Shown piece after piece: positions 7,551 to 35,467 of a stretch of 64,000 bases of DNA. The notes beneath the pieces are model-generated. The model ran no database searches. It had not been told where the DNA came from and worked only from the letters and a program-made list of their open reading frames with translations. The stretch is from an uncultured Leptospira sp. (GTDB lineage: Bacteria > Spirochaetota > UBA4802 > JAGODF01): contig CAZCYH010000008.1 of NCBI GenBank assembly GCA_964502925.1, forward strand, positions 4,185 through 68,184, written 5' to 3'. Both the position numbers and the translations under genes were made by a program. Every line of letters begins with the position of its first letter. The stretch's first letter is position 1.

Positions 7551-7689
7551 CCGATAATCCCTTTTCTTTAGCGTGAAAACCCCGGACGCGCCCGCAGCCT
7601 CAGTCCGACCGCACGAGTTCGGTGAGCAAAACTACATGCGTGTAATCACTATAATGCTGTCCGATGAATTATCCGGCAAGGAGATCGAT

Positions 7690-8742: not shown

Positions 8743-8753
8743 GGCGTAAGATC

Positions 8754-9503
8754 ATGTCCTATACCATCGCGATAACCGGCAAGGGCGGTACGGGCAAGAC
8801 GACCATCGCTGCGCTCATCGTTGTGGCAATGACACGGGCGGGCAAACGTCCGGTGCTGGCAGTGGATGCCGATCCCAATGCCTGTCTCGATGTGGCGCTG
8901 GGTGTTGAAGCGAAAAACACGGTGGGGCAATTGCGCGAGGATGCGCGAATACTTGCATCGGAGCATCCCGATATTTCAAAGCGCGAGCTTTTAGAGTTGA
9001 AGATTTCCGAAAGCCTAGTGGAAGGTGAGGATTTTGATCTCATTGCGATGGGGCGACCGGAAGGGCCGGGATGCTATTGCTACGCGAACAATGTGCTGCG
9101 CGAGGTACTGAAAGAAGTTTCTGATAATTATCCATATGTAGTTATCGACAATGAAGCGGGGCTTGAAAATCTCTCGCGCAGAATTGTGCGCCGCGTGGAC
9201 GCGCTTTTAGTGGTGGGGGAGCCGTCGCGAAACGGTATCGCGACGCTGCATCGGATACAGGCGCTTGCCGCAGAAATGAATATTGAATATGGGAAGCTCA
9301 TTGCGGTGATAAACCGGGTATATGAGGTAAAAAAATCCTATGATGACGTGAAGAAGGAAATGGGAGCGGACGGAATTGTTCTTCTGCCTCATGATGATGA
9401 AATACGAATGTTGAACGAAGCGGGAAGAAGTTTTTTTTCGCTACCGGAAAAAAATGCGGTATATCAAAAGGTGCGCGATGAGATCGTGGCGCCAGTAAAA
9501 TAA
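8754..9503 (+). CDS. cooC: CooC/AcsF-family Ni-insertion ATPase, copy 2
   Basis: 249 aa. ITGKGGTGKTT Walker A, DADPNACLD, and a C-x-C motif (GPGCYCYAN). It is paralogous to copy 1. Two paralogs are the usual pattern where one serves CODH and one serves ACS. Confidence 0.9.
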   Translation: MSYTIAITGKGGTGKTTIAALIVVAMTRAGKRPVLAVDADPNACLDVALGVEAKNTVGQLREDARILASEHPDISKRELLELKISESLVEGEDFDLIAMGRPEGPGCYCYANNVLREVLKEVSDNYPYVVIDNEAGLENLSRRIVRRVDALLVVGEPSRNGIATLHRIQALAAEMNIEYGKLIAVINRVYEVKKSYDDVKKEMGADGIVLLPHDDEIRMLNEAGRSFFSLPEKNAVYQKVRDEIVAPVK

Positions 9504-9522
9504 CTTCAAGAAGCGTGAAGGC

Positions 9523-14400: not shown

Positions 14401-14980
14401 GGATGTGCCGCTTGTCATTACGGGGCACAATCACTATGAAAAGATGAATGCGGTGATGAAGGAAATCGCCGCGGGGTGTGCTGGTGAAAATCTGCTTTTG
14501 AACTGGGCAGAGCAGGACAATTATCGTGTGATAGCAGGCGCCGCGATAGCGTACGGGCATACGGTGGTGGCGCAAAGCCCCATTGATGTGAATATTTCCA
14601 AGCAGCTCAACATTTTGCTTACGGGAATGGACGTGCCTATTAATCGCATCGTCGTCGATCCGCTCACCGGCGCGATGGGTTACGGTATCGAATACACCTA
14701 TTCCGTAATGGAGCGCATTCGCCTCACGGGCCTCGGCGGCGACGCAATGCTGCTTTCGCCCATGATTGTGTCCCCTGGACAGGAATGCGCCCGCATCAAG
14801 GAACTGCGCGCCGAAGAGATAGAGTTTCCTTCCTGGGGCGATCTGAAAAAGCGCGCGGCGCTGTGGGAACTTTCCACCGCCACGGCATTGCTCTATGCCG
14901 GGGCTGATATCCTCATCATGTATCATCCTGAAGCCGCGGGTGCTTTGAAAAAATCAATCATGCAGCTTATGGAGAAGTAA
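11465..14980 (+). CDS. acsB: Acetyl-CoA synthase (AcsB/CdhC, A-cluster subunit) fused to a C-terminal CFeSP small-subunit-like (AcsD/CdhD-like) TIM-barrel domain
   Basis: 1171 aa. GTG start overlaps the cooS stop. The AcsB part (about aa 1-720) is bacterial-type with a long N-terminal domain. It carries the [4Fe4S] ligand block CLLCQSFAPNHVCVITPERLGLCGA and the proximal-Ni Cys-Gly-Cys motif MTSCGCFE. An Asp/Glu/Lys-rich linker of about 130 aa follows. The last ~310 aa (…LISVRLDGTHPERGNY…VPLVITGHNHYEKMNAVMKEIAAG…VVDPLTGAMGYGIEYTYSVMERIR…) resemble the CdhD/AcsD corrinoid-protein TIM barrel. Confidence 0.9.
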   Translation: MSKIISSAAIDGAIAWVARAEKKLDEVILTKGEDAAVAFPDTAYYLPIIYSFTGKKVATLAHCREVLREAKELLPQRPSEHVWLPYLGNALDAGVAALFACEIIEACKYLIGPNPVEGIWLGAANDIIMRERGVEFVDGTAPGFAAVTGAAPSNDIAVKIARELQEKNLYVFMAGSTNGRQFAEQLAEEGVQLGWETRLVPYGRDVSALVYALGFANRAALSFGGVRPGDYAGNLRYNKNRIMAFVLAFDEVDADKYALAAGAINYGFPVIADTAIPQILPTGVCTYEHVVSSVPYEKIVERALEVRGCKVKITRVPIPVPYGPAFEGERIRKQDTHAEFGGNITTAFEFVTMVGMDEIEDGEIEIIGKDIDEIEAGSALPLGIWVEVAGRKMQPDFESILERQIHHLINGAEGIWHMGQRDIVWTRVSKSGFARGLRLRHYGEILHAQFLSNYPAIVDKVKVTLITDAEEAERRVAIARKVYRERNQRLASMTDESVDTFYSCLLCQSFAPNHVCVITPERLGLCGAYNWLDGKAAYEIDETGPNQPVKKGTVIDPGRGIFTGVDEYVYSNSHKKVESFSMYSIMHNPMTSCGCFEVILAYVPECNGVMAVNREYTGDTPVGMTFSTLAGNVGGGMQTPGFMGCGKVYLTSKKFVYAEGGHKRLVWMTTDLKQMVGDDMKKLFAELGLDGLFEKIADETISANPAEIRQFMEKNEHPALEMDDMALYAEMESTPRETIVPEKEEAGEIKKAQEVHDETVHPVSETRTMPHSVDVEALKRELFAELRDEMKKAITKEVVSEIISVLEEKFLGAKRPASPGNVSVEEKRDQVPLSESGHPHPKPSERISAIQSFPIPKESFSGAVHRVKIGATKAEGGTRGRTYEIGGANTMPFHHWEGIMPNRPLMAMEVFDRVGEKYPQALKDVWGELLLDPVRMAKACVEKYGADLISVRLDGTHPERGNYSPEDSLKLVKSVLAAVDVPLVITGHNHYEKMNAVMKEIAAGCAGENLLLNWAEQDNYRVIAGAAIAYGHTVVAQSPIDVNISKQLNILLTGMDVPINRIVVDPLTGAMGYGIEYTYSVMERIRLTGLGGDAMLLSPMIVSPGQECARIKELRAEEIEFPSWGDLKKRAALWELSTATALLYAGADILIMYHPEAAGALKKSIMQLMEK

Positions 14981-15076
14981 GGGAAATAATTATCATTTAT
15001 AGTTATACTACAAATGAGCCTGAAGGTAATTTCATGTTGTGATTGATAATTTTAGAAAAGCAGGTAGCACAGCGCA

Positions 15077-15991
15077 ATGCTTCACGCATATAAAATAGCA
15101 AACGGTGCGATAGTCCCAGCGAACGAGGAATCGGCGCCGATACTGGTGTATATCAACCCCACTATTGAAGAAAAGGATCTTCTGGTGGGAAATTACAATA
15201 TCGATTCGCACACCCTGCAGTCCGCGCTCGACCCCGATGAGCTTTCCCGGCTGGAGTTTGAGCCCGATCATGCCGCCGTCATTCTCAAACGCCCGCAGAA
15301 TTATTCTGCTGCCGATGAATTCCTTTTTAAAGTTTCATCAATCGGCATTTTCTGGTACCGGGAGCGCGTCATCATTCTCCTCATGGAAGATATACAGCTT
15401 TTCGACGGCAAAATTTTCTCGAAAGTGAATTCAATCGGCGATCTGGTGCTGAAAATTATATTGCGCATTATCTATCATTATATCGATCACCTGAAAGTTA
15501 TCAACATGATTTCCGATTCGCTCGAGCAGAAAATCAATACCTCCATGCGCAATAAATATCTCATCAATCTTTTCACGCTCGAAAAAAGTTTGGTCTATTA
15601 TCTCAATGCCATCAATTCGAATGCGACAGTGATAGAGCGCATAAAAAACAATCGCGCGCGCCTTGCGCTTGAAAATGAGCAGATTGAAATGCTGGACGAT
15701 ATCATCATCGAAAATACGCAGTGCCAGAAACAGGCGGAAATCTATTCGAACATTCTTGCCGGCCTCATGGACGCGCGCGTCTCAATCGTCAGCAACAATC
15801 TCAATATCCTCATGAAAACCTTAAACCTCATCACCATCGCCATCATGGTGCCTACCTTCGTGGTGAGTGCGTTTTCCATGAACGTGGCGATTCCCATGCA
15901 GCACTATCCGCATGCCTTCTGGATCATCATGGCGCTTGCGCTTATATCTGTGCTGACGTTTATGTTCTTCTGGCGCCTCAAAAAGTGGTGA
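15077..15991 (+). CDS. CorA-family divalent-metal (Mg/Co/Ni) transporter with a non-canonical SMN motif in place of GMN
   Basis: 304 aa. A soluble N-terminal CorA-like domain, then two C-terminal TM helices separated by FSMNVAIP at the position of the canonical YGMNF. Basic C-terminus (WRLKKW). Confidence 0.7.
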   Translation: MLHAYKIANGAIVPANEESAPILVYINPTIEEKDLLVGNYNIDSHTLQSALDPDELSRLEFEPDHAAVILKRPQNYSAADEFLFKVSSIGIFWYRERVIILLMEDIQLFDGKIFSKVNSIGDLVLKIILRIIYHYIDHLKVINMISDSLEQKINTSMRNKYLINLFTLEKSLVYYLNAINSNATVIERIKNNRARLALENEQIEMLDDIIIENTQCQKQAEIYSNILAGLMDARVSIVSNNLNILMKTLNLITIAIMVPTFVVSAFSMNVAIPMQHYPHAFWIIMALALISVLTFMFFWRLKKW

Positions 15992-16010
15992 GCGTATTTT
16001 TTTGTACGCG

Positions 16011-17102
16011 TCACAGGCTTTTTTGCGGGTGCCGTAAAATGTGCAGTGCGGTCGCTTTGAATGAAGCGGTTACCGTGCTTTTTTCTTGTAATCCGAGCTC
16101 GGAAAGTGAGTGCGGCGTGATATATGCAATGAGCTTAAATCCGCAATCGAGCGAAACGCGCACATGCGTGCCTGCATGAGTGATGCTGCATACCTTTGCC
16201 TCGAATGAATTGCGCATGCTGCTAGATGCATTTTTATCTTTTGAAATAACGATATGCTCGGGGCGTATTCCGAGTGTTACCATTTTGCCTTTATGCGCTG
16301 CGCCTGAAACTTCAATTGCTCTGCCGGAAACCTCGACAGTAAAACCGCCATTAAAAACATCAACGACGGTTCCGGAAAGAATTGTTTCAACACCCATGAA
16401 CGATGCAATGAATTCATCGGCGGGATTGCTGATGATGTCAGCCGGAAAGCCTTCTTGAATCACGCGGCCATTTCTCAGCACCACAATCCTGTCGGCCAGA
16501 CGAAGCGTTTCGTCGCGATCGTGGCTGATAAATATGACACCGCATTGGACATGGCGCAGCATTTTTTCGAAATCATCAAGCATGGAATCGCGGGCCAATG
16601 TATCGAGCGCTGAAAACGGTTCGTCCATGAGCAGGAGTTTTGGCTTTAGTATCAGGGAACGCGCGAGGGATACACGGCGCGCTTCTCCTGCAGAAAGAGT
16701 GTGTGAGCGGCGATGAAGCAGATGCGCAATGCCGAACATATCGGCGAACTCATGTACTTTTCGTTTGATTTCACTGGCAGGCAATTTTCGAATTTTCAAA
16801 CCGAGTGCGATGTTCTCACCTGCCGTTGTGTTCAAAAGCAAAGGTTCCTGAAAGAGCATGGTGATGGATTTTCGACGATCGTACAGAGCGCGGATATCAT
16901 GAATTGGAATTTCGTCGAATATGAGATCAAGCTCGCGTACTTTAATAAGGCCAGCAAGTGCCAGAAGCAGTGTAGTTTTTCCCGCGCCATTGTGCCCGAT
17001 AATTGCGATGCTTTCGCCGACGTGAAGGCGGATATTATTGACCGAAAGTGTGAATTGGCCAATTTGCGCCGTTATTTTTTGAATATCGAGCAGCGATTTC
17101 AT
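16011..17102 (-). CDS. tupC: ABC transporter ATP-binding subunit with C-terminal TOBE/Mop domain (tungstate/molybdate type, TupC/ModC-like)
   Basis: 363 aa. Walker A GHNGAGKTT, signature LSAGEARRVSLARS, Walker B LLLMDEP. A C-terminal ~110-aa TOBE-like beta domain is present. Confidence 0.8.
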   Translation of the reverse strand: MKSLLDIQKITAQIGQFTLSVNNIRLHVGESIAIIGHNGAGKTTLLLALAGLIKVRELDLIFDEIPIHDIRALYDRRKSITMLFQEPLLLNTTAGENIALGLKIRKLPASEIKRKVHEFADMFGIAHLLHRRSHTLSAGEARRVSLARSLILKPKLLLMDEPFSALDTLARDSMLDDFEKMLRHVQCGVIFISHDRDETLRLADRIVVLRNGRVIQEGFPADIISNPADEFIASFMGVETILSGTVVDVFNGGFTVEVSGRAIEVSGAAHKGKMVTLGIRPEHIVISKDKNASSSMRNSFEAKVCSITHAGTHVRVSLDCGFKLIAYITPHSLSELGLQEKSTVTASFKATALHILRHPQKSL

Positions 17103-17104
17103 GG

Positions 17105-17803
17105 TTATTTCATGCGTCCTTTTTGCTGCACATACGACAGGAAATAGTTCACGGCAAAAGAAAGAACCAGCAGAATGATGCCGAACGCAATGGCAGTGTC
17201 GAAATTTCCGCGCGATGTTTCCATCACGGTGGCGGTGGTGAGTACGCGGGTTGAACCTTTGATGTTGCCGCCCACCATCATTGAGGCGCCCACTTCGCTT
17301 ATCACGCTTCCAAAACCTGCCATAATTGCCGCAAGAAGTGGCAGGCGTGCCTGACGGTAGAGGATGAAAAGCGACTGCAGGTGTGAAGCGCCGAGTGCAA
17401 AAATTTGAAGGCGAAAATTTTTTGGTACCTGCTGCAGCGCCGAAAGCGTTATGCCCGTCACCATAGGGGTGGCGATGAGCACCTGCGCAATAATGATGGC
17501 AAGAGGTGTATAGAGGATTTCAAAATCGCCGAACACTCCCCCGCGCCAGAGCATAAGCGTGGTGAAAAGCCCTACTACCACAGGGGGAACGCCCATGCCG
17601 GTGTTGACAAGACCGACCACAAAGGTTCGACCGGGAAATTCGTTGAGCGCAATTGCACTGCCGATGGCGATGCCGATGATTGAACTGATGATGGTGGATG
17701 TAATCGTCACCTCGAGTGTGAGAAAAAGCACCTCGTAGACTTCGCGATCGAACGATGCGATGAGGGCAATAGCTTTTTGTAATCCTTCAAGAATGAGTTC
17801 CAT
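17105..17803 (-). CDS. tupB: ABC transporter permease (TupB/ModB-like)
   Basis: 232 aa polytopic membrane protein with an EAA-like loop region (…GASMMVGGNIKGSTRVLTTAT…). It is adjacent to the ATPase and the binding-protein gene. Confidence 0.8.
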   Translation of the reverse strand: MELILEGLQKAIALIASFDREVYEVLFLTLEVTITSTIISSIIGIAIGSAIALNEFPGRTFVVGLVNTGMGVPPVVVGLFTTLMLWRGGVFGDFEILYTPLAIIIAQVLIATPMVTGITLSALQQVPKNFRLQIFALGASHLQSLFILYRQARLPLLAAIMAGFGSVISEVGASMMVGGNIKGSTRVLTTATVMETSRGNFDTAIAFGIILLVLSFAVNYFLSYVQQKGRMK

Positions 17804-17805
17804 GG

Positions 17806-18681
17806 TTATTTCCGATCGTTCTTATATATTGGAATAAAGAGAGATTCGCCAAATGTTTTTTTCCCGAATTGGGCGATGATGTTTTGTGCTCCTGGTGAAA
17901 ACAGGTAGTCTGCGAATAATTGTGCTTCCTTCGATCTGATACGAGGAAACCGGGTCGGATTGATTTCAATAACAGAATATTCATTGAATAGCATTTCTTC
18001 GTTTTCCCACACAATTGTAAGGGATAGATTTCTTTTAAGAACAGCCCAGGTTGCTGAATCGGTCAGCGTATAGCCGTTTTTTTCCGATGCAATCGAAAGA
18101 GTTTCTCCCATGCCCAAACCCGTTTCCTGATACCATGTACGACCATCAGGCATTATAGCAGCTTTTTTCCAGATTTCGCGCTCCGCATAATGCGTGCCGG
18201 AATTATCTCCGCGGGAAATGAAAATCGCTTCCTTCTGGATGATTGCGCGGAATGCATCGGTTGGCGTAATTGCGCGGTGTATCTGTGCAGGATCATTCGG
18301 AGGGCCGACGATTATAAAAGAATTTTTCATCAATCCCCGGCGTCGGATTCCATAGCCCTCATTCATGAAGCGCTCTTCTTCGGCTGGCGAATGTGCAAGG
18401 AGAATATCGGCTTCGCCGCGCTTTCCGAGAGCCATGGCTTTGCCTGATCCAACCGCAATCACTTTTACCCTGATGCCGTGTTCCTGTTCAAAAGGGGGAA
18501 TGAGTTCATCCAGAATACCACTGTCCTGCACGCTGGTGGTGGTAGCAAGTATGATGGAAGGCTTTTTCGTGCAGGAGCAAAATGCGATCGAAGTAATAAA
18601 TAGTGCACCGAAAGCAATTATATGACGCAAATAGGGAACACGGGAAAATTCAATATGTGTAGCGCCGTGGCTGGTGTTCAT
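17806..18681 (-). CDS. tupA: Periplasmic oxyanion-binding protein, TupA-like (tungstate/molybdate)
   Basis: 291 aa. Signal peptide/lipobox (FCSC). The mature protein has the TTTSVQDSGILDEL block characteristic of TupA-type tungstate binders. PBP fold look (…VIAVGSGKAMALGKRGEADILLAHSP…). Confidence 0.7.
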   Translation of the reverse strand: MNTSHGATHIEFSRVPYLRHIIAFGALFITSIAFCSCTKKPSIILATTTSVQDSGILDELIPPFEQEHGIRVKVIAVGSGKAMALGKRGEADILLAHSPAEEERFMNEGYGIRRRGLMKNSFIIVGPPNDPAQIHRAITPTDAFRAIIQKEAIFISRGDNSGTHYAEREIWKKAAIMPDGRTWYQETGLGMGETLSIASEKNGYTLTDSATWAVLKRNLSLTIVWENEEMLFNEYSVIEINPTRFPRIRSKEAQLFADYLFSPGAQNIIAQFGKKTFGESLFIPIYKNDRK

Positions 18682-18880
18682 ATAACAACCTTGAGATTAA
18701 AGGAATATACCTATGATGTGACTTTTTTATGTCAAGAGATTTCGATGATGCTACAGGTTACTTCAATTGCGTAAAAAATTACACTGCACTGACGATAATA
18801 AAAACGCTTTACAGTTCGCACAATCGTATGCATAATGATCGTACATGGGAAACTGCCATATCAACGAAAAGGAAACGATA

Positions 18881-19630
18881 ATGAAAATAACATCGATAGC
18901 GCGCGCAACGTTTGTGTGTGGAATTACCGTCTTTGTGCTGATTGTGGTAATGGCTTCTGTTGGCGGCAATCCACGCCCCGCGGTTTTTCCGAACGCACAT
19001 GGCTATACCGCAGCGATGTATTGGTTTGAACGCGTGGAAAGCGTGCAGGATCTTTTTTTCGCGCTCGGTAAGGCGGGGACTGCCGAAGGTATGCGCATAC
19101 GACAGGCAATGGATGCCGTCAATACAATCGATTTTGCGTTTATGATTGCCTATTCGGCTTTTTTTGCGTCCCTCTACCTGTTATTTTCATTGCGCGTGAA
19201 GCATAAGGATGCACGGATCTCTTTTAACAATATCTGGATGATTGCTGGCATTGTTTTGTCGATTCTCATGCTTTTTGGCGATATTTTCGAAAACATCCAG
19301 TTGTTGAAGCTCACGAAATTCTCAAACGAAGCGGAAGTGGATATCAATGTCATTGCGCATCTGATGTTTTTCACAAGGCTAAAGTGGTTTGCAATTTTTT
19401 TTGCAAGCATCGGCTTTTCTATACTCTGCGCGATTTCCGCATGGCATAACCGTTGGTGGTATCTGCTTTCGCTTGTCTATGTCGCATCAGGCGTCATCGG
19501 GTTTATGTCGTTCTTTGTGCCGGGATATGCCGCCTGGCTTGAACTTTCTGCAAATGTGATGGGTGCGGGATGGCTGATTTCAACACTTCACGCGGGTTAT
19601 GTTGCGCTGAGAAAAAATGCGAAACTATAG
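18881..19630 (+). CDS. Hypothetical polytopic membrane protein
   Basis: ATG 18881 with an AAGGAAA RBS (the track ORF starts at 18845). About 6 hydrophobic helices. No recognisable family. Confidence 0.5.
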   Translation: MKITSIARATFVCGITVFVLIVVMASVGGNPRPAVFPNAHGYTAAMYWFERVESVQDLFFALGKAGTAEGMRIRQAMDAVNTIDFAFMIAYSAFFASLYLLFSLRVKHKDARISFNNIWMIAGIVLSILMLFGDIFENIQLLKLTKFSNEAEVDINVIAHLMFFTRLKWFAIFFASIGFSILCAISAWHNRWWYLLSLVYVASGVIGFMSFFVPGYAAWLELSANVMGAGWLISTLHAGYVALRKNAKL

Positions 19631-19653
19631 CAGCATCGGATTCATCATAGAAA

Positions 19654-20826
19654 TCACGCATGCTGCGATTCAATAAGCCTTCTGAAATATCTGCAGTTTT
19701 CAACCAGGTCATTGCTGTGCCGGAAAAGTCCGCCGCCCACTAAATAGATGACATCATCTCCGTAAAGCTGTAGCATTTCAGGAATACGTTCCATCGTCAT
19801 GCCGCCGCCAGGGGTGGGAAAAATTGGCCGCATGCTTCCAAGCTCTTCGGTGCATGCACGCACAATTGCCGCACAGTCCTTGCGGCTGAAAGAAAATCGT
19901 CCCCCGAAGTTCGGGTAGATGGTGGCATCGGCGCCTGCGATGCGGCACAGAGTTCCGAACAGGCAGGAGGGCGAGATGCCGTTTTGGTTGATTGCAAATG
20001 ATCCCACAAATGCAGGATGCGCAATCAGGGGAAGCTCGATCTTTTCATGGGCGGCTAGCATGCGCATGGCATCGAAACCGACAAGTCCAGGTGCAATTAA
20101 AAGTGCGCCTGCGCCATATTCCTTCGCAAACATTGCGCGCTCAAGTAGTTCGTCGCACGGTGCGGTGATATTCGGCGCGTAGATGGCATTGCCCCCTGTT
20201 TTTGCATTCGCGTTATAAATCGATTCGGCGCAGCGGGAGACGCGCTCTTTGAAGCAGGCAAAGGGCTGATTGGTAAGCCCGTGATCGTCCTTGATGATAT
20301 CGATGCCGCCAAGCGCGAATTGGTAGGCAAGCTCAGCCAATCCTTTCGATGAAAGCCCCATGGGTTTGAGTGCGGTGGCAAGCAGCTGCCCTGATTGGCG
20401 ATGCAACATATTTCGCAAGCCTGAAATTCCGAATCGCGGACCGGTGAACATTTTCAAAAGCGCCGGTGGAAGCTCTACGCGTTCAAGCCGTATGCCGGGT
20501 TTGAGGCTGATATTCCCGAAAAGTACGTTTAGAAGTTGTGTGAACTCGCACGCGGTAATATCGACGGAAAAGCTTATGAGCGCATAATACGCACCATCTA
20601 TTTGTTCAAAGCGTTCGATGCGTCCAAATACTGAATTGCGGATAAAACCGTTCGGAATGAGATCTTCTGGAAATTCAATCGTCTGCTTAATGCAGATATC
20701 CGCAGCGTGTTCGCGCGCTTCGTGCTCGTTGCCGGCAAGGCGATAGAGTGCAAAAAAGCGTTCCGTGGAATCACTGGAAACAGTGTGTGCGGCAATGAAC
20801 TCGTGAAAGAACTCTTTGCTGTTCAC
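19654..20826 (-). CDS. RubisCO large-subunit-like protein (form IV RLP-type; KDDH instead of KDDE)
   Basis: 390 aa. RubisCO large-chain blocks: LKPMGLSSKG (cf. KPKLGLS), GGIDIIKDDH (cf. GGLDFTKDDE; the carbamylated Lys and Asp are kept, but Glu is replaced by His), LIAHPAF (cf. HIHRAMHAV; Arg295 replaced), and LVGGGLFRHSND (cf. GGGTLGHPWG). The start overlaps the upstream transketolase-C stop by 4 nt. Confidence 0.85.
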   Translation of the reverse strand: MNSKEFFHEFIAAHTVSSDSTERFFALYRLAGNEHEAREHAADICIKQTIEFPEDLIPNGFIRNSVFGRIERFEQIDGAYYALISFSVDITACEFTQLLNVLFGNISLKPGIRLERVELPPALLKMFTGPRFGISGLRNMLHRQSGQLLATALKPMGLSSKGLAELAYQFALGGIDIIKDDHGLTNQPFACFKERVSRCAESIYNANAKTGGNAIYAPNITAPCDELLERAMFAKEYGAGALLIAPGLVGFDAMRMLAAHEKIELPLIAHPAFVGSFAINQNGISPSCLFGTLCRIAGADATIYPNFGGRFSFSRKDCAAIVRACTEELGSMRPIFPTPGGGMTMERIPEMLQLYGDDVIYLVGGGLFRHSNDLVENCRYFRRLIESQHA

Positions 20827-21830
20827 AGCGCCTCGGCGTTTACGCTTCCCGATATTTCAGAAAGGCGGATTTCAGCAAGCTCGTCTTCAGTGATGCGAAA
20901 AGATGCGCCAAGTATTGCTTCGATGTTGCGTACAAGTGCCATTGCGTCGAGGCCGTATTCTTTTTTCAAATAGGGCAGGCTTGCGCCGTGGGCGAAGGTA
21001 TCACGCAGTCCGATGCGCACGAGCTTTTTGCCGATGCCATGCTCGGCCATCATTTCCGCAACGGCGCTTCCAAGTCCGCCGATGGTGGTATGATTTTCCA
21101 TGGTGATGACGCCACAGCGCGCCTTATCGATTGCGTCTAATACGAGTGGATCATTGAATGGTTTCAGCGTGGCGATGTGCAGATGGGAAATTGAAACGCC
21201 GCGAAGTTTGAGTGCCTCTGTTGCACGCAGCGCCTCTTCCGTGCAGATGCCCGAAGAAAAGAGTGCAATGTCGCTGCCGCGCGAGATGACGCGCGCTTTA
21301 CCGAAGATGAGGGGATTGTCGTCACCGAAAAGCTTTGGTATTTCACCGCGCAGCATTCGGACATACACTGGTCCTTGAATGGATGCGGCTACATCCAGAA
21401 TCGTTTTGACATCGGTAGCGTCACCAGTTTCAAGCACAGTCATGTTGGGAAGAGAACGCATTACTGCAATGTCTTCAATTGCCTGATGCGTCGCTCCGCC
21501 CGGGGTGGTAATGCCAGGAAGAAAGCCGAACATTTTGACGGGAAGATTCGGATACGCGACCGACATTGCAATCTGATCAAACGCGCGGCGATAGATAAAC
21601 ACCGCGAAGGTATGTACCAGCGGCAAAAATCCCTCGCGCGCCAATCCCCCCGCAAATGAAAGCATATTCTGCTCGGCAATGCCCATGGAAAGAAAGCGAT
21701 CGGGATAGGTCTCGCGAAAAAGGTCGATTTCAGTGGAACTCGTGAGATCGGCCGAAAGTACCAGCGCTTCGGGATGATCTTTCGCCCATTTAACTAAATT
21801 TTTCGCATGTACTTTGCTTGCAATTTCCAT
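20823..21830 (-). CDS. Transketolase, C-terminal subunit (split transketolase)
   Basis: 335 aa. Pyrimidine-binding/C-terminal domain blocks (GIAEQNMLSFAGGLAREGFLPLVHTFAVF; PGITTPGGATHQAIEDIAVMRSLPNMTVL). Confidence 0.85.
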   Translation of the reverse strand: MEIASKVHAKNLVKWAKDHPEALVLSADLTSSTEIDLFRETYPDRFLSMGIAEQNMLSFAGGLAREGFLPLVHTFAVFIYRRAFDQIAMSVAYPNLPVKMFGFLPGITTPGGATHQAIEDIAVMRSLPNMTVLETGDATDVKTILDVAASIQGPVYVRMLRGEIPKLFGDDNPLIFGKARVISRGSDIALFSSGICTEEALRATEALKLRGVSISHLHIATLKPFNDPLVLDAIDKARCGVITMENHTTIGGLGSAVAEMMAEHGIGKKLVRIGLRDTFAHGASLPYLKKEYGLDAMALVRNIEAILGASFRITEDELAEIRLSEISGSVNAEAL

Positions 21831-21835
21831 GATAA

Positions 21836-22771
21836 TTATTCAATAGTATTAAAAAATGAAAGCTTTTGCTCGAACTCTTTTCGCTCCTGTTCGGATGAAA
21901 AGCGCACGTAGTGAAATTTCGGCGCGCGCGACCGCAAAAACTCCATATCCCTGCACGGATCGGTATCGCACAGCACGATTGTGGGTTTATCATCCGCGAT
22001 GCGTGTGCCGCATTCGATGAGTTTATCGATATTATGCCCGTCAATTCTAAACACGCGCATGCCGAACGCTTCAAGCCGTGTGTGCAATGGCTCAATGTTC
22101 ATCACATGTTCAACCCTGCCATCGCACTGGTGGCCGTTGATATCGACAAAGATGAGTATGTTGTGAAGCTTGTGAAAGACAATTGCCTGAATTGCTTCCC
22201 ATGTCTGGCCAATCTGAAATTCGCCATCGGACATAAAGAGCACATTTCGGCCTGTTTCTCCTTTGCGCTTCCGCGCCATGGCGATACCAGCAACCTGGCT
22301 GATTCCCTGGCCGAGAGAGCCGGTCATGATTTCCATTCCCGGCGAATGTTCCGCGCCGATCATCTCTAAAATGCCGCCGTCGCGGTTGAATTCTTCGAGT
22401 GCGTGTTCATCCATGCGTCCGGCTTCGATGAGCGCGGCGTACATCACAAGTGAATATTGCGACGGCGAAAGATAAAATCGGTCGAGTTCTGGCGATTTGT
22501 TGCCGTGGAATGCCGCGCCGGTTTTGTACTGCGGATTGGAATTGCCCGGCACGCCGGGGAATTTCCATGGAGCAAGCGCCATATCGAGTGGTGATAACCG
22601 AAGAATGGCGCCGTACAGCGAGGCAAAAATTTCGGCGGAAGAACATGCCTGGCATAAATAGCCGCCGTTGTTTTTAACAGTATGTTCAAGCACGCGGCGA
22701 CGTATTCCCTGCGCCATTTGAGAAATGCGAGAGGTTTTCATTTGCAGATGGTGTGATGATGAAGCATTCAT
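21836..22771 (-). CDS. Transketolase, N-terminal (TPP-binding) subunit (split transketolase)
   Basis: 311 aa. TPP-binding blocks (GGYLCQACSSAEIFASLY; GSLGQGISQVAGIAMARK; FMSDGEFQIGQTWEA). A 5-nt gap separates it from the C-terminal subunit gene. Confidence 0.85.
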   Translation of the reverse strand: MNASSSHHLQMKTSRISQMAQGIRRRVLEHTVKNNGGYLCQACSSAEIFASLYGAILRLSPLDMALAPWKFPGVPGNSNPQYKTGAAFHGNKSPELDRFYLSPSQYSLVMYAALIEAGRMDEHALEEFNRDGGILEMIGAEHSPGMEIMTGSLGQGISQVAGIAMARKRKGETGRNVLFMSDGEFQIGQTWEAIQAIVFHKLHNILIFVDINGHQCDGRVEHVMNIEPLHTRLEAFGMRVFRIDGHNIDKLIECGTRIADDKPTIVLCDTDPCRDMEFLRSRAPKFHYVRFSSEQERKEFEQKLSFFNTIE

Positions 22772-22923
22772 ATTAATGCGGCAGATTAAAAATACTTTGA
22801 TATGAAATCAAGTGAAAATCATTTTGTATTTAGCAGTGATGAATGGCAAACAAAAAAAGATTGAAAAATATCCATAAGATGCACAGGCTGTTTTTAGGTT
22901 AAATTATGCAATAGGAATTTGAT

Positions 22924-23772
22924 ATGCCAGAAATAAAAAAACAGGCAATTGGCGATGTTTCAATCGATTATTTAGATTATCCCGCTGATGGACCCACTGT
23001 CGTCATGCTGCATGCCACCGGTTTTCTGCCGTGGCTCTGGCATCCTATCGCGCGCGAACTGCAGAAAAATTTCAGAGTGATCGCGCCATATTTTTGCGAT
23101 CAGCGGCACGCCGAGCCGGAAGAGGGCCTGGAATGGATGCTCATTGCCGATGACCTGTGCGCCTTCTGCCGGGAGTTAAATATCGAAAGACCTTTATTGG
23201 TGGGCCATTCGATGGGCGCTACTGTCATGACGCTTGCCGAAGCCATGCACGGGCCGGTTGCGAGTAAAATGATTCTCATTGAGCCTATATTCCTTCCGCA
23301 AGATTTATATAGAATTAATATCACAATTGAACAGCATCCGCTGGCCGCAAAATCCATAAAGCGCAAGAATTTCTGGCACAATCGCGAGGAAGCAAGAGCA
23401 TATTTGCACTCAAAAAAAATCTTCAAAAAGTGGACGGATGAGATGCTCGATCTGTATATTGAATATGGAATGGTGGAAGGAGAAACTGGAGGACTTACGC
23501 TTGCGTGTCATCCGCGGCGCGAAGCAGCACTTTTCATGGGTTCGACGAAGTATGATCCCTGGCCACTCCTTTCGAAGGTACAGTGCCCGGTGTTGGTGCT
23601 CGAGGGGGAGGAGAGCGAAAATCGTGCATTTATTGATTTAAAAAAGGCTGTTTCCATGTTTCCACATGGTGCATACCGTATGATTTCAGGATCAGGGCAT
23701 TTAATTCCGATGGAAAAACCGGAAGAGATTATTGCAATAATTTTGGGTTTCGCAACAGATAGTGCGATATAA
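22924..23772 (+). CDS. Alpha/beta-hydrolase fold protein
   Basis: 282 aa. Nucleophile elbow VGHSMGA, HG oxyanion-hole region (VVMLHATGF), and a C-terminal GSGHLIPMEKPEE block with the His. Confidence 0.75.
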   Translation: MPEIKKQAIGDVSIDYLDYPADGPTVVMLHATGFLPWLWHPIARELQKNFRVIAPYFCDQRHAEPEEGLEWMLIADDLCAFCRELNIERPLLVGHSMGATVMTLAEAMHGPVASKMILIEPIFLPQDLYRINITIEQHPLAAKSIKRKNFWHNREEARAYLHSKKIFKKWTDEMLDLYIEYGMVEGETGGLTLACHPRREAALFMGSTKYDPWPLLSKVQCPVLVLEGEESENRAFIDLKKAVSMFPHGAYRMISGSGHLIPMEKPEEIIAIILGFATDSAI

Positions 23773-23848
23773 GGCCATTGGAGTCTGGCAAAAAAGGGAT
23801 GTGCTGCCATGCACAAGTTGCCGATATTGGAGTATGAAGGTTTAGAAC

Positions 23849-24682
23849 ATGCCTGCGGACAACAACATTAGAAATACGCTCGTTGAGATTGAAAGCGCGG
23901 TATATGCGGCGCTCTTATATGATTTTTTGGAGCCGGAGAAAATTGAAAAATCAATCAAGGCGGTTGATGATCTTTTGAAAAGTAGTGATTCTCTGAACCT
24001 CTGCGAAAATTATTTCAAATCTTCTGGCGAGGGAAATGTCCTGTATTTTATTTCAAATATTCTTTACAATCTTAAAACTAAAAGCCAACTCGTGCTTACG
24101 CCGGACGTGCTTAAATGGCTTGGTAGTGTGTGGAAAAATTTTTTAAGCAGAAACAAGGTGTATCAGGAGCAATTCACGTTTTTTAAAGACCAGAAGTCGA
24201 AGTTCGAAAAGTATTTTGGAACAGGGGGGCTGGTCCACAAGATCGACAATGTGCATGTTGTGACGCAGGATTTTCTGGTGGAATCGGAAGATGAAAATAC
24301 GCCGCTACGAAAGCTCGAACGATTTTACAAGACATTTGCAGAAATTATGTCGTGGATGAAGCCTACCTACTACTTCATGCTCGATTATTATTATGAATGG
24401 CAGTCTCGCAGCTCAACAAGCGTGAATGAAAATCTTCAAAAAAAACTCGAAACCTTAAAAGTTTTTGGGTATGAAGGATATACCTATGGAGCCATTGCAA
24501 ATGCCGTCTGTCAGTCGCTGGCAATTCTTGAGGCCATGTATTTGGTTTTGAAAAAAAAGAAGACCTCGAGGCAGATTTTCAGCATCGATGGCAAAAGCCG
24601 CCTTCTTTCGATCTCCGAAATATACGATGTCTACCGCGATAAATTTTTAGAAGCACAAAACGAGCTTGCCCGCTTAAAATAA
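23849..24682 (+). CDS. Hypothetical protein (AT-rich, K/F/Y-rich; no recognisable domain)
   Basis: 277-aa ORF with a clean frame. Its composition is visibly more AT-rich than neighbouring genes. It is followed by a strong structured terminator region. Confidence 0.5.
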   Translation: MPADNNIRNTLVEIESAVYAALLYDFLEPEKIEKSIKAVDDLLKSSDSLNLCENYFKSSGEGNVLYFISNILYNLKTKSQLVLTPDVLKWLGSVWKNFLSRNKVYQEQFTFFKDQKSKFEKYFGTGGLVHKIDNVHVVTQDFLVESEDENTPLRKLERFYKTFAEIMSWMKPTYYFMLDYYYEWQSRSSTSVNENLQKKLETLKVFGYEGYTYGAIANAVCQSLAILEAMYLVLKKKKTSRQIFSIDGKSRLLSISEIYDVYRDKFLEAQNELARLK

Positions 24683-24708
24683 GGGAACTTCTAAAAACTG
24701 TTTTAAAG

Positions 24709-24812
24709 GCTGTGCCCTTGTGGGCACAATATATAGGTAAAAACCGCTTTCTTTTGATACTAATTTTAAGGATGAAAGCGGTTTTTAGAGGTGCCCATAA
24801 TATATTTTTTTG
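24709..24812 (+). terminator. Compound stem-loop / intrinsic terminator-like structure downstream of the 23849-24682 gene
   Basis: A perfect hairpin TGTGCCC-TTGT-GGGCACA sits at 24711-24728. A 13-bp stem AAAAACCGCTTTC…GAAAGCGGTTTTT (24740-24785) follows. Then GTGCCC (24791-24796), which can alternatively pair with GGGCAC (24722-24727), is followed by a T-run ATAATATATTTTTTTGTTTTTG. Confidence 0.35.
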
Positions 24813-25038
24813 TTTTTGATTAATTTGCAACTTTACTGCGAATAAAACCCATCCGAGCTTATTATTAATGTCACATAACGATTTTCGTCATTTTCGATAT
24901 AAAATTTTTGGTTTATAATAAAAAATTACTTGTTTATGATTGAATATAATATAATTCTTTATTACATTTTTCATGCGATTGTATATTAATCATAATGAAC
25001 AAATGTAAAAAAAATCAAAACAGGGCAAGGGTAGGGAA

Positions 25039-26547
25039 ATGGCGGCTTCTGTGATTGCGCAGAAAACATCTCAGTTGTCGGAAAAATTCGATGCTGGGGA
25101 ACCGGTTGTTTTAAGCTTTTATTATCATAACAAGTTCAATGTACAATTTTTAAACTCGTTCATCACGAAAATTCTTTCGCGCAACAATATGCTGTACCTG
25201 CGTGATACGATTCTTTCCGTGCTCAAAGAGCTGATTGTGAACGCGGTGAAAGCAAATTCGAAACGTTTGTTCTTCTCCTCTCAGAATCTCAATGTGAAAG
25301 ACATACACGATTATACCGAAGGCATGAAGGATTTCAAAGCCTATATAATCGATAAGAAATCTCTCATAGAAGATGAACTTCGCAACAGCGATTTGCGCGT
25401 AAAGGTCTATTTCAAAAAGAATGACGGTGAATTTCAGATTTTCGTGCGCAACGATTGTAGTATGCTTCCTGATGAAGCCGAGCGGGTCAGATCGCGGATC
25501 GAAAAAGCCAAGCAATACAGCGATTTTGCCGAAGTGTACGAAGATATGACTGACGATTCCGAGGGCGAGGGCCTCGGTCTTTTGCTTTCGGTGCTTTTTC
25601 TAAAAAATTCCGGCATCAATCCCGATTACCTGAAAATCGTTTCAATGGAAAAGTACACCCAGGCTTCATTCGTTGTTCCAAAAGTTTTAAAGACCGATGC
25701 CCAGAAAACTCGCGTTCAGCTTAAGATCATGGAGGAAGTCGAAGACCTCCCGTCATTTCCTGAAAATATTCTTGAGCTGATCCGCATGTGCAAAAAGAAC
25801 GATGTTTCAATTAAAGAAATTGCAGAAAGGATAATGCAGGATCCCGCTCTCTCCGCATCCGTGCTCAGGCTATCAAACTCTGCAGGGTTTATCACGCGCA
25901 AGCGCATTGACAGCGTTTTTGAAGCTGTCAACATTATCGGATTGAAGAATTTAAATATGATTTTAATCGCTTCGAGTGCCAGAAGCATCATGTCGACCCG
26001 ATACTCATCTTTCAGGGAAGTGTGGAATCACTGCAACCGTGTGGCGTTTTATGCTCGCACTATCGCTCTCCGCAAAGGTTATACAAAGATTGCGGAACAT
26101 GCGTTTTTGGCAGGTCTTTTACATGATCTTGGGAAAATCATTCTCCTCTCGACGACGGCGCGGCTTGCCGAGTGGATTGCCGATATGACAAAAAACCGTG
26201 AAATGCGCACTTCGACGGTGATCGAAGAAATATCCATTGGTATGAGCCATTCCGCAATCGGAGCCGCGGTAGCGGAGAAATGGAACCTTCCGCACTACAT
26301 CATTGAATCGATTAAACAACATCATTCGCCTCTTTGCTCGGATCCGGCGTTTTCCGACATCGTTTTGATAGTTTATATGGCAAATACCATAGCGGGCATA
26401 GAAGCAGGGAAGTATGAATATCCCTATCTCGAAGATGATGTTCTAGAAATGTTCGATCTTCAGGACGAAGGTGCGATTGAAGCCTTCCATGAGGAGATCA
26501 AGCAACAGTACGAGGAACATATGTCAGTTGCCCTCAGCGCCTCATAG
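25039..26547 (+). CDS. Signal-transduction protein with N-terminal GHKL/anti-sigma-factor-like ATPase-like domain and C-terminal HDOD domain
   Basis: 502 aa. The N-terminus has an N-box-like block (LKELIVNAVKANS) and a G-box-like block (DDSEGEGLGL). The middle has HDOD signatures (LPSFPENILELIRMC…IMQDPALSASVLRLSNSAGF…GLLHDLGKIIL). Confidence 0.75.
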   Translation: MAASVIAQKTSQLSEKFDAGEPVVLSFYYHNKFNVQFLNSFITKILSRNNMLYLRDTILSVLKELIVNAVKANSKRLFFSSQNLNVKDIHDYTEGMKDFKAYIIDKKSLIEDELRNSDLRVKVYFKKNDGEFQIFVRNDCSMLPDEAERVRSRIEKAKQYSDFAEVYEDMTDDSEGEGLGLLLSVLFLKNSGINPDYLKIVSMEKYTQASFVVPKVLKTDAQKTRVQLKIMEEVEDLPSFPENILELIRMCKKNDVSIKEIAERIMQDPALSASVLRLSNSAGFITRKRIDSVFEAVNIIGLKNLNMILIASSARSIMSTRYSSFREVWNHCNRVAFYARTIALRKGYTKIAEHAFLAGLLHDLGKIILLSTTARLAEWIADMTKNREMRTSTVIEEISIGMSHSAIGAAVAEKWNLPHYIIESIKQHHSPLCSDPAFSDIVLIVYMANTIAGIEAGKYEYPYLEDDVLEMFDLQDEGAIEAFHEEIKQQYEEHMSVALSAS

Positions 26548-26620
26548 GGCAGCGTAGTCGCGCGGTATCCCGTTTCATAATTTCCCATATTTTCATCAAG
26601 AATTCAGGTCGAGATAATAC

Positions 26621-27817
26621 TTGACGGGTGGCGGGTTACGTATTCTGCTTGCAGGCGATCTCTCATACTGCCGGTCATGGTACGCGTTTAAGATTATGGA
26701 TGAAATCCGCTATACATTGGTAGTAAACAGGGGACGTGATGAAGGCTTCGATGTTCGCGAGCTTCCCAAGGAGGATTTCATCCGCGAAACCGCACGACTG
26801 CTCCCCAAACCTAAAAGAATATTTTGTGGCCTTGGCGATTTTCTTGAGATCGGAGACTACAACAATCTTCTGGATTCCATTTTTTTTGAGAAGGAAGCGG
26901 TGAAATTTGAGGCTTTGCTTGATCGCATCAACAGAAAAATGAGCGAAAAAGGCAGTATCCCCTCGTCGTTTCTTAAACTTGCGGTGTATTTTCCGGATTT
27001 TCTTTTAAAAAATGTACCCACTTTTTGCGCTTCAACCATCGGCAAAAAATCGCGCCTCACGCCCGGAGCGCGAAACTTAATTAAATATCTTCAAGATTAC
27101 CCAATTATTTTTCTCACCGCGATGCCCTATGAAATCGCGATTGAATTTGTCCGCAGAGTGGGACTTGACAGTGAGAATCTTATTTCTACAGTATATCGCA
27201 CAATGCAGGATGATCACAGGCGGACTCTGTATGCGGGCGGCATTAAGCGTTTTATTTCCGGGGACCGCAAAAGCCTGGAAATTGAAAAGCGTATGGCATC
27301 GGAGAATCTTGGGGAAACCGATGTCGTTTACATGGGAAGAGGCGAAGCCGGCGTGAAGACGTTTCATACGGTCAATTCGATTGCGTTCAACCCTTCGGAT
27401 TCAATCATTCCTGTGTCAAAAATAACCCTCTACGGTTCTTCACTCGAATCGCTGCTGGTTCTCTTTAATTTCGAGGGTGAACTGGACAGGTATCTTCTTT
27501 CGAACCAGTACGAAGAATTTCTCCCCTCTCTGGTCGTTTATTCCGAAAAGCGGGAAAAATCTTCCGCACTCATAGAGCTGGAGAAGGAACACCGGCAGTT
27601 GCAAAACAATATCATTGGCCAGAGGATAGAATACGAAGGGGAAAGCTATTATTCAGTTGAAAGGGACATCGAAGTTGAGTTTAGCGCATCAACTTTCGAT
27701 ATTAAAAAAGTGCGGGAAGAAATCAGCACACGTATGGAGCGATATCATCAGAATCCGGACGAATTTGCCAATAAAGTTTATGTGATGGCGAGGGAGCGGT
27801 ATTGGTCGCTTATTTAA
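26621..27817 (+). CDS. Hypothetical protein (possibly HAD-like; weak)
   Basis: 398-aa ORF. The start may be at MDEIRY (26696). Only a weak HAD-like look (IIFLTAMPYEIAIEFVRRVGLD). Confidence 0.45.
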   Translation: MTGGGLRILLAGDLSYCRSWYAFKIMDEIRYTLVVNRGRDEGFDVRELPKEDFIRETARLLPKPKRIFCGLGDFLEIGDYNNLLDSIFFEKEAVKFEALLDRINRKMSEKGSIPSSFLKLAVYFPDFLLKNVPTFCASTIGKKSRLTPGARNLIKYLQDYPIIFLTAMPYEIAIEFVRRVGLDSENLISTVYRTMQDDHRRTLYAGGIKRFISGDRKSLEIEKRMASENLGETDVVYMGRGEAGVKTFHTVNSIAFNPSDSIIPVSKITLYGSSLESLLVLFNFEGELDRYLLSNQYEEFLPSLVVYSEKREKSSALIELEKEHRQLQNNIIGQRIEYEGESYYSVERDIEVEFSASTFDIKKVREEISTRMERYHQNPDEFANKVYVMARERYWSLI

Positions 27818-35279: not shown

Positions 35280-35467
35280 TTTTCGTTCGACGGCCGTTTT
35301 CCCCATTCCGCAATTGTAACCTGTAAAATGCTCTATCTGAAAAATATTTAATCCAATACAGTTCTTTTTATTGACAGATGATGTGCCAAAAATATAGATT
35401 ATCGTCGGTCTGATTGCATGACTGGTTGCTTGAAAGTGTCATTGAAAAAAATAAAGGAGCGTCAAAC

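Follow-up and report, generated by a model that had tools for sequence, protein, structure and literature searches.

A transketolase-like enzyme encoded with a RuBisCO-like protein as a candidate module of oxygen-independent methionine salvage

Only a handful of oxygen-free routes of methionine salvage are known, namely the MTA-isoprenoid shunt and the DHAP shunts (MTA, 5′-methylthioadenosine; DHAP, dihydroxyacetone phosphate), which were worked out in purple bacteria and Escherichia coli. The stretch of DNA considered here, 64,000 nucleotides of contig CAZCYH010000008.1 from an uncultured Leptospira sp. (positions 4,185 to 68,184; hereafter the window, with coordinates counted from its first letter), carries a three-gene operon that encodes the two subunits of a transketolase-like (TK-like) enzyme dependent on thiamine diphosphate (ThDP), here called tktN and tktC, and a RuBisCO-like protein (RLP). 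The balance of the evidence leans slightly towards this operon being a self-contained module of oxygen-independent methionine salvage by way of MTA or methylthioribose. Its features are as follows.

22771 to 21836, minus strand: tktN-like gene (311 aa), N-terminal (PP-domain) subunit of a transketolase-like ThDP enzyme.
21830 to 20823, minus strand: tktC-like gene (335 aa), C-terminal subunit (Pyr plus C domain) of the same ThDP enzyme.
20826 to 19654, minus strand: RLP gene (390 aa, GTG start), of the DeepYkr type, a predicted 5-methylthioribulose-1-phosphate (MTRu-1-P) 1,3-isomerase.
22772 to 22923: divergent intergenic region of 152 nt ahead of tktN that presumably holds the promoter of the operon.

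The coordinates of the open reading frames (ORFs), their strand and the letters at the junctions all agree with an earlier note on this DNA, which had described three co-directional genes separated by a 5-nt gap and a 4-nt overlap. The tktN/tktC junction reads TAA-TTATC-ATG, and at the tktC/RLP junction (CTGTGAAC) the GTG start of the RLP gene overlaps the TGA stop of tktC by 4 nt (GTGA). The product of tktN matches the Pfam family Transketolase_N (60.9 bits), that of tktC matches Transket_pyr (106.7 bits) and Transketolase_C (67.9 bits), and the RLP matches RuBisCO_large (129 bits). In the presumed promoter region, matches to σ70-like elements are weak (6 vs. 4.7 expected by chance). Control of the operon by a riboswitch was considered and rejected, as no Rfam match was found at E-values up to 1 in positions 15000–27000 of the window, nor any at the Trichococcus locus described below.

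The link between the TK-like genes and the RLP gene is real and reciprocal. A search with an RLP alignment against one genome per species, with neighbouring genes identified by tblastn, gave 80 loci; tktN and tktC adjoin the RLP gene in 55 of these (55 of the 73 that are informative), distributed over at least eight phyla and including Clostridia (among them Clostridium ljungdahlii, C. drakei, and Desulfosporosinus), Nitrospirota, Chloroflexota, Spirochaetota, Calditrichales, Planctomycetia, Myxococcota, NC10, and Synergistia. The remaining 25 loci comprise 7 with too little upstream sequence, 7 with a Cupin_2 gene and 11 with unrelated neighbours; in the sampled group, the RLP is accompanied by the TK-like gene more often than by any other partner (55 of 73 informative genome loci vs. 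7 for the cupin). The converse search, made with a tktN alignment against metagenome contigs, gave 80 further loci, 55 of them with enough sequence, and the RLP gene directly follows tktC in 52 of these 55. Because the trio recurs in this way in both collections, the operon is not a chance arrangement, and the synteny in other genomes that the earlier note had proposed to look for is borne out. The TK-like subunits are more conserved than the RLP across loci (57–78% identity for tktC vs. 41–60% for the RLP), and the TK-like gene occurs in cultured, tractable or industrial anaerobes (C. ljungdahlii, C. drakei, C. estertheticum, and Trichococcus).

Variants of the arrangement were also seen. Both tkt halves are fused into one 683-aa protein in four Nitrospirota loci (L014, L017, L035, and L061), and a gene for an AhpD-like CxxC protein lies between the fused tkt gene and the RLP gene in L014, L035, and L061. 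The three metagenome loci that have TK-like genes without an adjacent RLP gene are L092, L155, and L156; the first has divergent genes for Cys/Met-family and PALP enzymes dependent on pyridoxal phosphate (PLP) beside the TK-like genes, and in L155 RidA, nitroreductase, and PNP_UDP_1 phosphorylase genes lie downstream of them.

The class of the RLP can be read from its motifs and its relatives. Motif GGIDIIKDDHGL retains the carbamylatable Lys and Asp (K179-D180-D181-H182) and has His182 at the position of RuBisCO Glu204; the motif LIAHPAF (H270-P271) retains His294 and has Pro271 at the position of RuBisCO Arg295. The replacements at these two sites, which the earlier note had recognized, are seen in the sequence and in alignments alike, and its conclusion that the protein belongs to form IV and is not a carboxylase stands: with Glu204 and Arg295 replaced and NCBIfam equivalog scores for RuBisCO far below their cut-offs, a carboxylating RuBisCO of forms I–III was rejected. 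What did not survive is the suggestion that KDDH is a peculiar variant. Both K179-D180-D181-H182 and H270-P271 are invariant in the RLP alignment, and KDDH is present in 79 of the 81 aligned sequences, that is, in all 79 members of the clade, both exceptions being MtnW outgroups with the KDDE of MtnW enolases; the structure of a Rhodopseudomonas palustris RLP (3qfw) has IKDDHGL and VAHPAM. The combination of KDDH with AHPAF is a hallmark of the DeepYkr-type clade and not an oddity of the window RLP.

When the window RLP was compared with the Protein Data Bank (PDB) by phmmer, 3qfw was the top match (276 bits, E-value 4e-81), followed by 4nas (163 bits), 2oek (158 bits), and 1tel (146 bits), with RuBisCOs at 131 bits or less; the best MtnW among the solved relatives scored 163 bits and the Chlorobium RLP 146 bits. 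The sequence of 3qfw agrees in full with that of an R. palustris protein (100% identity), and in the R. palustris homologue P0283 a Cupin_2 gene lies directly downstream and overlaps. The window RLP is 39% identical to 3qfw and 37% to P0283, and several homologues that are 57–59% identical to it bear the name S-methyl-5-thioribulose 1-phosphate isomerase, which the Joint Genome Institute derived from KEGG Orthology. Its best NCBIfam matches are to MtnW models, yet they lie below the equivalog cut-offs (NF007095, 212 vs. 409 bits; TIGR03332, 173 vs. 513.6 bits), and the motif is KDDH, not KDDE, so that an MtnW/YkrW enolase was rejected. An RLP of the apiose pathway (OiaX/OiaC) was likewise rejected (NF042437 OiaX, 79 bits vs. 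a cut-off of 700).

In a neighbour-joining tree (200 bootstraps) rooted with two MtnW sequences, the only other sequences present, both the group of the window RLP and the alphaproteobacterial RLP1 group were supported at 100%; the separation from MtnW carries no independent weight, as the MtnW pair were the only outgroups. Of the phylogenetic placement proposed in the earlier note, this tree covers the clade of the window RLP and MtnW; in it, the window RLP belongs to a fully supported group whose sister is the characterized, cupin-linked RLP1 group. R. palustris RLP1 and the R. rubrum RLP have been shown experimentally to be MTRu-1-P 1,3-isomerases that work with a cupin methylsulfurylase (PMC5893883). 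Transfer of this function to the window RLP is supported because KDDH is present in all aligned clade members, because several homologues at 57–59% identity are named as isomerases, and because seven members of the group are linked to a cupin. The window RLP is accordingly predicted, with good confidence, to be an MTRu-1-P isomerase; taken by itself, it is a further member of a known RLP type. The earlier idea of a new enolisation of a generic sugar phosphate gives way to the chemistry expected of the clade, the 1,3-isomerisation of 5-methylthioribulose-1-phosphate.

The distribution of the two partners points to the substrate of the TK-like enzyme. Cupin_2 adjoins the RLP gene in seven loci, four of which also have a gene for O-acetylhomoserine (OAH) sulfhydrylase, and none of the 80 RLP loci carries both a cupin and a TK-like partner. 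No cupin methylsulfurylase gene lies beside the window RLP or elsewhere in the 64 kb, and the TK-like genes stand in its place. In the tree, RLPs linked to tkt and RLPs linked to a cupin are scattered among one another; in Syntrophomonadaceae, the tkt-linked locus L020 groups with the cupin-linked loci L019, L022, and L033 at 100% bootstrap support. The flanking gene clusters of L019, L020, and L022 are alike, with a cupin gene preceding the RLP gene in L019 and L022 (in L022 together with OAH sulfhydrylase) and tktN-tktC preceding it in L020; from these shared flanks it follows that the partner was exchanged in place. Not one column of the RLP alignment separates tkt-linked from cupin-linked proteins, and 107 columns conserved at 90% or more are identical in both. 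Most simply, cupin and TK-like genes can be read as alternatives beside one RLP of apparently constant function, and both enzymes as receiving the same RLP product. That the TK-like enzyme acts on the product of the RLP is fairly probable.

The neighbourhood of the module in other genomes points to methionine salvage. Genes for a ribose-type ABC transporter, mtnK, mtnA, tktN, tktC, and the RLP follow one another in this order in loci of C. drakei, C. ljungdahlii, Anaerosolibacter, Anaerolineae, and Bacillota; Trichococcus flocculiformis has them arranged as Cys/Met PLP enzyme, ABC transporter, mtnK, mtnA, RLP, tktN, and tktC. The MtnA and MtnK neighbours exceed the NCBIfam equivalog cut-offs (464 vs. 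271 bits and 464 vs. 275 bits, respectively). Among 71 immediate same-strand neighbours of tkt-type modules, IF-2B (MtnA) is the top family, followed by class II aldolase and solute-binding proteins. OAH sulfhydrylase genes lie near tkt-type modules in Trichococcus, in L072 and in four metagenome loci. A gene for glyceraldehyde-3-phosphate dehydrogenase (GAPDH) flanks the module in several Nitrospirota loci and is listed beside it in L004, L008, L014, L093, and L106, which fits glyceraldehyde-3-phosphate as a product. Directly downstream of the RLP gene, SAM-I riboswitches (SAM, S-adenosylmethionine) were found in C. drakei (L037, 9239–9351 and 12101–12212) and in C. ljungdahlii (L039, 12402–12512); they presumably control the genes that follow and are a hint from the neighbourhood, not evidence for control of the tkt-RLP operon. 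The earlier observation that no kinase, isomerase or dehydratase is adjacent holds for the window; in several relatives, mtnK-mtnA directly precede the tkt-RLP module. A context outside known methionine salvage is contradicted by these same genes, with scores above the cut-offs beside the module, and by the alternation of the module with the cupin of the MTA-isoprenoid shunt.

The TK-like enzyme has kept the cofactor site of transketolases and rebuilt the substrate site. Three Pfam domains, the ThDP/Mg motif and the cofactor-activating Glu place it in the transketolase family. The best PDB matches of tktN and tktC are the two chains of a split transketolase (6yak, its N chain, 38% identity over 189 aa; 6yaj, 222 bits, 39% identity). 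Scores against the NCBIfam transketolase model NF004559 are 133 bits for tktN and 207 bits for tktC, with a cut-off of 488. Against the dxs model TIGR00204 they are 25 and 180 bits, with a cut-off of 466; DXS was rejected on these scores, and the earlier note's distinction of the N subunit as transketolase-like rather than DXS-like is confirmed (133 vs. 25 bits). Residue positions were assigned by counting in alignments with human transketolase and with the split enzyme of Carboxydothermus hydrogenoformans, and their conservation was measured in 48 RLP-linked homologues of the N subunit and 56 of the C subunit. Retained and invariant in the family are the ThDP/Mg motif of tktN (S181-D182-G183-E184 … D210-x-N212) and the cofactor-activating Glu53 of tktC; tktC also retains Ser32, His115 (which we take to occupy the position of yeast H481), Arg158, and Arg161, and His287 of tktN is probably a retained equivalent of H263, as judged from the alignment. 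The substrate-site residues compare with those of human transketolase as follows.

tktN, human H37: replaced by Tyr38 (47 of 47 sequences).
tktN, human H77: Gln (31 sequences) or His (17 sequences), at the position of Q105.
tktN, G-H110-P: replaced by Glu-Met-Ile-Gly (M137 and I138 invariant), with a new invariant His142.
tktC, human H416 (phosphate-binding His): replaced by Leu104 (55 of 56 sequences).
tktC, Glu-Asp424: replaced by Pro110-Gly111 (56 of 56 sequences).
tktC, human R318: Ser or Thr at position 5, assigned with less certainty, at the margin of the alignment.
tktC, human S345 and R474: retained as S32 and R161.

The resulting signature of tktN is G36-G37-Y38 (canonical SGH), S102-P-S-Q105-Y (canonical SKGH), E136-M137-I138-G139 … H142 (canonical GHP), C216, and H287-Y-V-R290-F. 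Within the family, the changes from SGH to GGY, from SKGH to SP(S/A)(Q/H)Y, from GHP to EMIG…H, from H(A/C)G to LPG, and from GEDG to PGG, which is one residue shorter, are invariant or nearly so. New invariant residues are His8, His73, and Arg81 of tktC and Arg290 of tktN; Cys216 of tktN is nearly invariant and is Val in Trichococcus. Human H37, H77, and H110 presumably correspond to yeast H30, H69, and H103. In canonical transketolase, the equivalents of H77 and H110 hold the C1 hydroxyl of the donor ketose, and their replacement by Gln/His and Met-Ile would fit a donor that has S-methyl or hydrogen at C1.

These data bear on the reading of the earlier note, in which an ordinary split transketolase of the pentose-phosphate pathway and a new RLP enolase or isomerase form a sugar-phosphate route outside methionine salvage. 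Such a route would agree with the public annotation, which names members of the TK-like family only "transketolase" or "DXP synthase N-terminal domain-containing protein," and with the absence of any mtn gene from the 64-kb window. Five canonical substrate-site residues are replaced family-wide, however, and both subunits fall far short of the transketolase cut-off; a canonical transketolase (EC 2.2.1.1), with its N-domain histidines and Pyr-domain ligands, was rejected on these grounds. The RLP, moreover, falls with the cupin-linked MTRu-1-P isomerase type and has the motifs of that type, and the only pathway genes that recur beside the module are mtnK and mtnA. An ordinary transketolase beside a new RLP is thus very improbable.

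A pathway can be proposed from these elements. In relatives, MtnK or MtnP together with MtnA has been reported to form 5-methylthioribulose-1-phosphate, which DeepYkr RLPs convert to 1-methylthio-xylulose-5-phosphate. In the window organism, MtnK or MtnP with MtnA, encoded elsewhere in the genome, would supply the 5-methylthioribulose-1-phosphate. The RLP, judged by its clade, would isomerise this compound to 1-methylthio-xylulose-5-phosphate. The TK-like enzyme would then stand in for the cupin methylsulfurylase, as comparative genomics and the anatomy of the active site suggest: ThDP would add to the C2 carbonyl of 1-methylthio-xylulose-5-phosphate and the C2–C3 bond would be cleaved, giving glyceraldehyde-3-phosphate and a 2-(methylthio)-1-hydroxyethyl unit held on ThDP as the enamine. 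In the last and least certain step, suggested by chemical reasoning, this enamine would expel methanethiol to leave acetyl-ThDP, which would be released as acetate or acetyl phosphate; methanethiolate should leave because the thioether sits beta to the carbanion and is a good leaving group. OAH sulfhydrylase would recapture the methanethiol into methionine. Elimination of methanethiol is held as a tentative outcome, somewhat short of an even chance. The full proposal, that the TK-like enzyme is a "methylthio-phosphoketolase" which cleaves 1-methylthio-xylulose-5-phosphate and carries out the C–S beta-elimination in the same active site to yield glyceraldehyde-3-phosphate, methanethiol and acetyl phosphate or acetate, is put forward as possible but doubtful.

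The reactions could follow the same order with no elimination, the C2 unit being released as 2-(methylthio)acetaldehyde or passed to an aldose acceptor, as by a true transketolase. The transketolase fold and cofactor motifs agree with this, as do the retained His at the yeast H481 position and H287, the probable counterpart of H263. In R. rubrum and R. palustris, MTA metabolism is known to pass through 2-(methylthio)acetaldehyde (PMC5893883), and a class II aldolase-like gene near some modules shows that the organisms handle such chemistry. Transfer to an acceptor is harder to reconcile with the invariant loss of the equivalent of human D424, which positions the C4 hydroxyl of acceptor or donor, and of one phosphate-binding His. 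Against release of the aldehyde, no alcohol or aldehyde dehydrogenase is consistently linked to the modules, OAH sulfhydrylase beside some of them suggests free methanethiol, and elimination from a ThDP enamine that carries a beta thioether should come before its protonation. The turnover of fluoropyruvate by pyruvate dehydrogenase E1 is a precedent for such a beta-elimination. Cleavage with the methylthio group kept on the C2 unit is therefore unlikely, if by no means far-fetched.

Instead of or besides MTA salvage, the module could dispose of 5′-deoxyadenosine or 5-deoxyribose, with the RLP converting 5-deoxyribulose-1-phosphate to 1-deoxyxylulose-5-phosphate and the TK-like enzyme cleaving the latter to glyceraldehyde-3-phosphate and, from the hydroxyethyl unit, acetaldehyde. 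Anaerobic hosts tend to be rich in radical SAM enzymes, and the window itself encodes carbon monoxide dehydrogenase/acetyl-CoA synthase (CODH/ACS) and a radical SAM protein; the hydrophobic Met137, Ile138, and Tyr38 at the site of the C1 hydroxyl would suit a methyl group as well as CH2-S-CH3. MtnK/MtnA-type enzymes of the DHAP shunt serve both methylthio and deoxy sugars, according to two reports (PMC6079011; PMC12632272). No RLP is known to use 5-deoxyribulose-1-phosphate, however, and the kinase and isomerase encoded beside the module exceed the MtnK and MtnA equivalog cut-offs. The recurring genes for OAH sulfhydrylase and Cys/Met-family PLP enzymes, and the methylsulfurylase cupin as the alternative partner, point to recovery of sulfur; 1-deoxyxylulose-5-phosphate, moreover, is directly useful, which would make its cleavage needless. 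Disposal of deoxy sugars is accordingly quite improbable as the role of the module.

Several observations weigh against methionine salvage by the TK-like enzyme and the RLP. The 64-kb window contains no mtnK, mtnA, mtnP or sulfhydrylase gene, so that the supply of substrate in the window organism can only be inferred: tblastn gave no match in it to MtnA, MtnK, cupin, OAH sulfhydrylase, class II aldolase, AhpD-like protein or GAPDH, and Pfam scans of its remaining large ORFs gave no IF-2B, APH, or PNP_UDP_1 domain. The window RLP is just 37–39% identical to the characterized alphaproteobacterial type, compared with 33% to MtnW, and in the neighbour-joining tree it lies in a sister group and is not nested within the characterized RLP1 group. 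Eleven RLP loci have neither partner nearby, their neighbours being unrelated genes such as those for DNA methylases, chromate transporters, and Lgt. Among the 71 neighbours of tkt-type modules, none of the genes pta, ack, and alcohol dehydrogenase recurs that would point to a fate of the C2 unit. Two of the four canonical phosphate ligands have seemingly been lost (R318 to Ser/Thr and H416 to Leu), which would be surprising with a 5-phosphate substrate, unless the invariant H73 and R81 have assumed their role.

The view of the earlier note that a transketolase-coupled RLP route is uncharacterized appears to be correct. A full-text literature search found no description of an RLP-transketolase pathway and no assay of a tkt-linked enzyme; key subscription papers were outside its reach, so that an earlier mention of the gene association is possible. 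Two reviews or surveys that discuss the MTA-isoprenoid shunt name only the cupin. That the gene association has been noted before is a minority chance but a substantial one, and that the system has already been characterized is much less likely.

In the window, the operon is isolated between a tungstate transporter and signalling genes, in an anaerobe with CODH/ACS whose nearest relatives place it probably in Spirochaetota. The ABC transporter for tungstate (16011–18681, minus strand), close downstream of the operon, consists of a TupA-like binding protein, a TupB-like permease, and a WtpC-like ATPase with a TOBE domain, and it is not conserved with the tkt-RLP module in other genomes. An alpha/beta hydrolase gene (22924–23772, plus strand) is divergent from the operon, and a gene for a 261-aa membrane protein with no family match (18845–19630, plus strand) is convergent with it; both were rejected as members of the pathway, as neither is conserved outside the two nearest relatives (L001 and L002). 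A cluster of the Wood-Ljungdahl type (5287–14980, plus strand) includes a radical SAM gene, CooC/ParA-type ATPases (6777–7550 and 8754–9503) and a CODH of the Prismane family (9523–11472, plus strand), and its last ORF, of 1171 aa, combines an ACS beta subunit (CdhC, ACS_CODH_B_C) with a delta part resembling CdhD. A fusion of ThiD2 with TMP-TENI (thiamine-phosphate synthase; 4150–5214, plus strand) is encoded 15 kb from the ThDP enzyme, a closeness that is probably a coincidence. The GC content, about 0.47 elsewhere, dips to 0.39 at 24001–26000, over the 3′ end of a 277-aa ORF with no family match (23849–24682) and the start of a gene for an HDOD/HD-domain protein. Two tandem, partly overlapping ORFs of 332 aa each lie at 35462–37356 (minus strand), one with WYL and WCX domains and the other with no family match.

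The tkt-RLP module extends a known pathway family, is widespread and is mis-annotated in public databases; it may involve a new type of transketolase-family reaction. If salvage by this module is confirmed, it would be a third oxygen-independent fate of 5-methylthioribulose-1-phosphate and would give a function to thousands of genes now named just "transketolase" or "RuBisCO large subunit." The reaction would be new to the transketolase family, a C–C cleavage of a thioether sugar possibly coupled to C–S elimination, and metabolic models that count these genes as enzymes of the pentose-phosphate pathway or the Calvin cycle would need correcting. If the TK-like enzyme is in fact a methylthio-phosphoketolase, the route would be independent of glutathione and oxygen and potentially ATP-yielding, and many anaerobes, among them acetogens, Nitrospirota, Chloroflexota, and Spirochaetota, could recycle methylthioribose or even grow on it.

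Compared with known systems, the RLP resembles MtnW/YkrW, the 2,3-diketo-5-methylthiopentyl-1-phosphate enolase of Bacillus and Geobacillus, in being an RLP assigned to methionine salvage with an AHPAF-type motif that lacks Arg295; it differs in having KDDH instead of KDDE, in its separate branch of the tree and in scores far below the MtnW equivalog cut-offs. The TK-like enzyme is divided between two genes with the same three Pfam domains as the split transketolase of C. hydrogenoformans (6yak/6yaj), and it keeps the ThDP/Mg motif, the cofactor Glu, the His equivalent to H481 and the Ser and Arg phosphate ligands of canonical and split transketolases. At 38–39% identity to the split enzyme, however, the TK-like family has rebuilt its substrate residues and nearly always adjoins an RLP gene. 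The proposed net reaction mirrors that of xylulose-5-phosphate phosphoketolase, with CH3SH leaving instead of water; this is a mechanistic analogy only, as a Pfam scan of the TK-like subunits (E-values up to 1e-3) found transketolase and DXS families and no phosphoketolase (XFP) domain. Loss of a beta leaving group from a ThDP enamine to give acetyl-ThDP has analogies in sulfoacetaldehyde acetyltransferase (Xsc) and in the action of pyruvate dehydrogenase E1 on fluoropyruvate.

The DHAP shunt, which consists of MtnK/MtnP, MtnA and the class II aldolase Ald2 and handles both MTA and 5′-deoxyadenosine, starts from the same ketose phosphate made by MtnK and MtnA, is independent of oxygen, cleaves the sugar to a triose phosphate and a sulfur-bearing C2 fragment, and is often encoded in a small catabolic operon with a transporter. 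In that shunt, the 1-phosphate undergoes aldol cleavage to DHAP and 2-(methylthio)acetaldehyde, whereas in the tkt-RLP module the RLP would first shift the phosphate/carbonyl pattern, and a ThDP-dependent cut between C2 and C3 would then give glyceraldehyde-3-phosphate. Closest of all in its parts is the MTA-isoprenoid shunt of R. rubrum and R. palustris, which has the same RLP type (KDDH and AHPA, with 3qfw as the closest structure and a sister clade in the tree), the same supply of substrate by MtnA, as far as this can be inferred for the window organism, and likewise a gene adjoining the RLP gene whose product would process the RLP product. The partner there is a cupin, 1-methylthio-xylulose-5-phosphate methylsulfurylase, and the yield is 1-deoxyxylulose-5-phosphate; the window operon has a two-subunit ThDP enzyme instead, from which glyceraldehyde-3-phosphate and a C2 unit would be expected, and which would need no thiol co-substrate such as glutathione.

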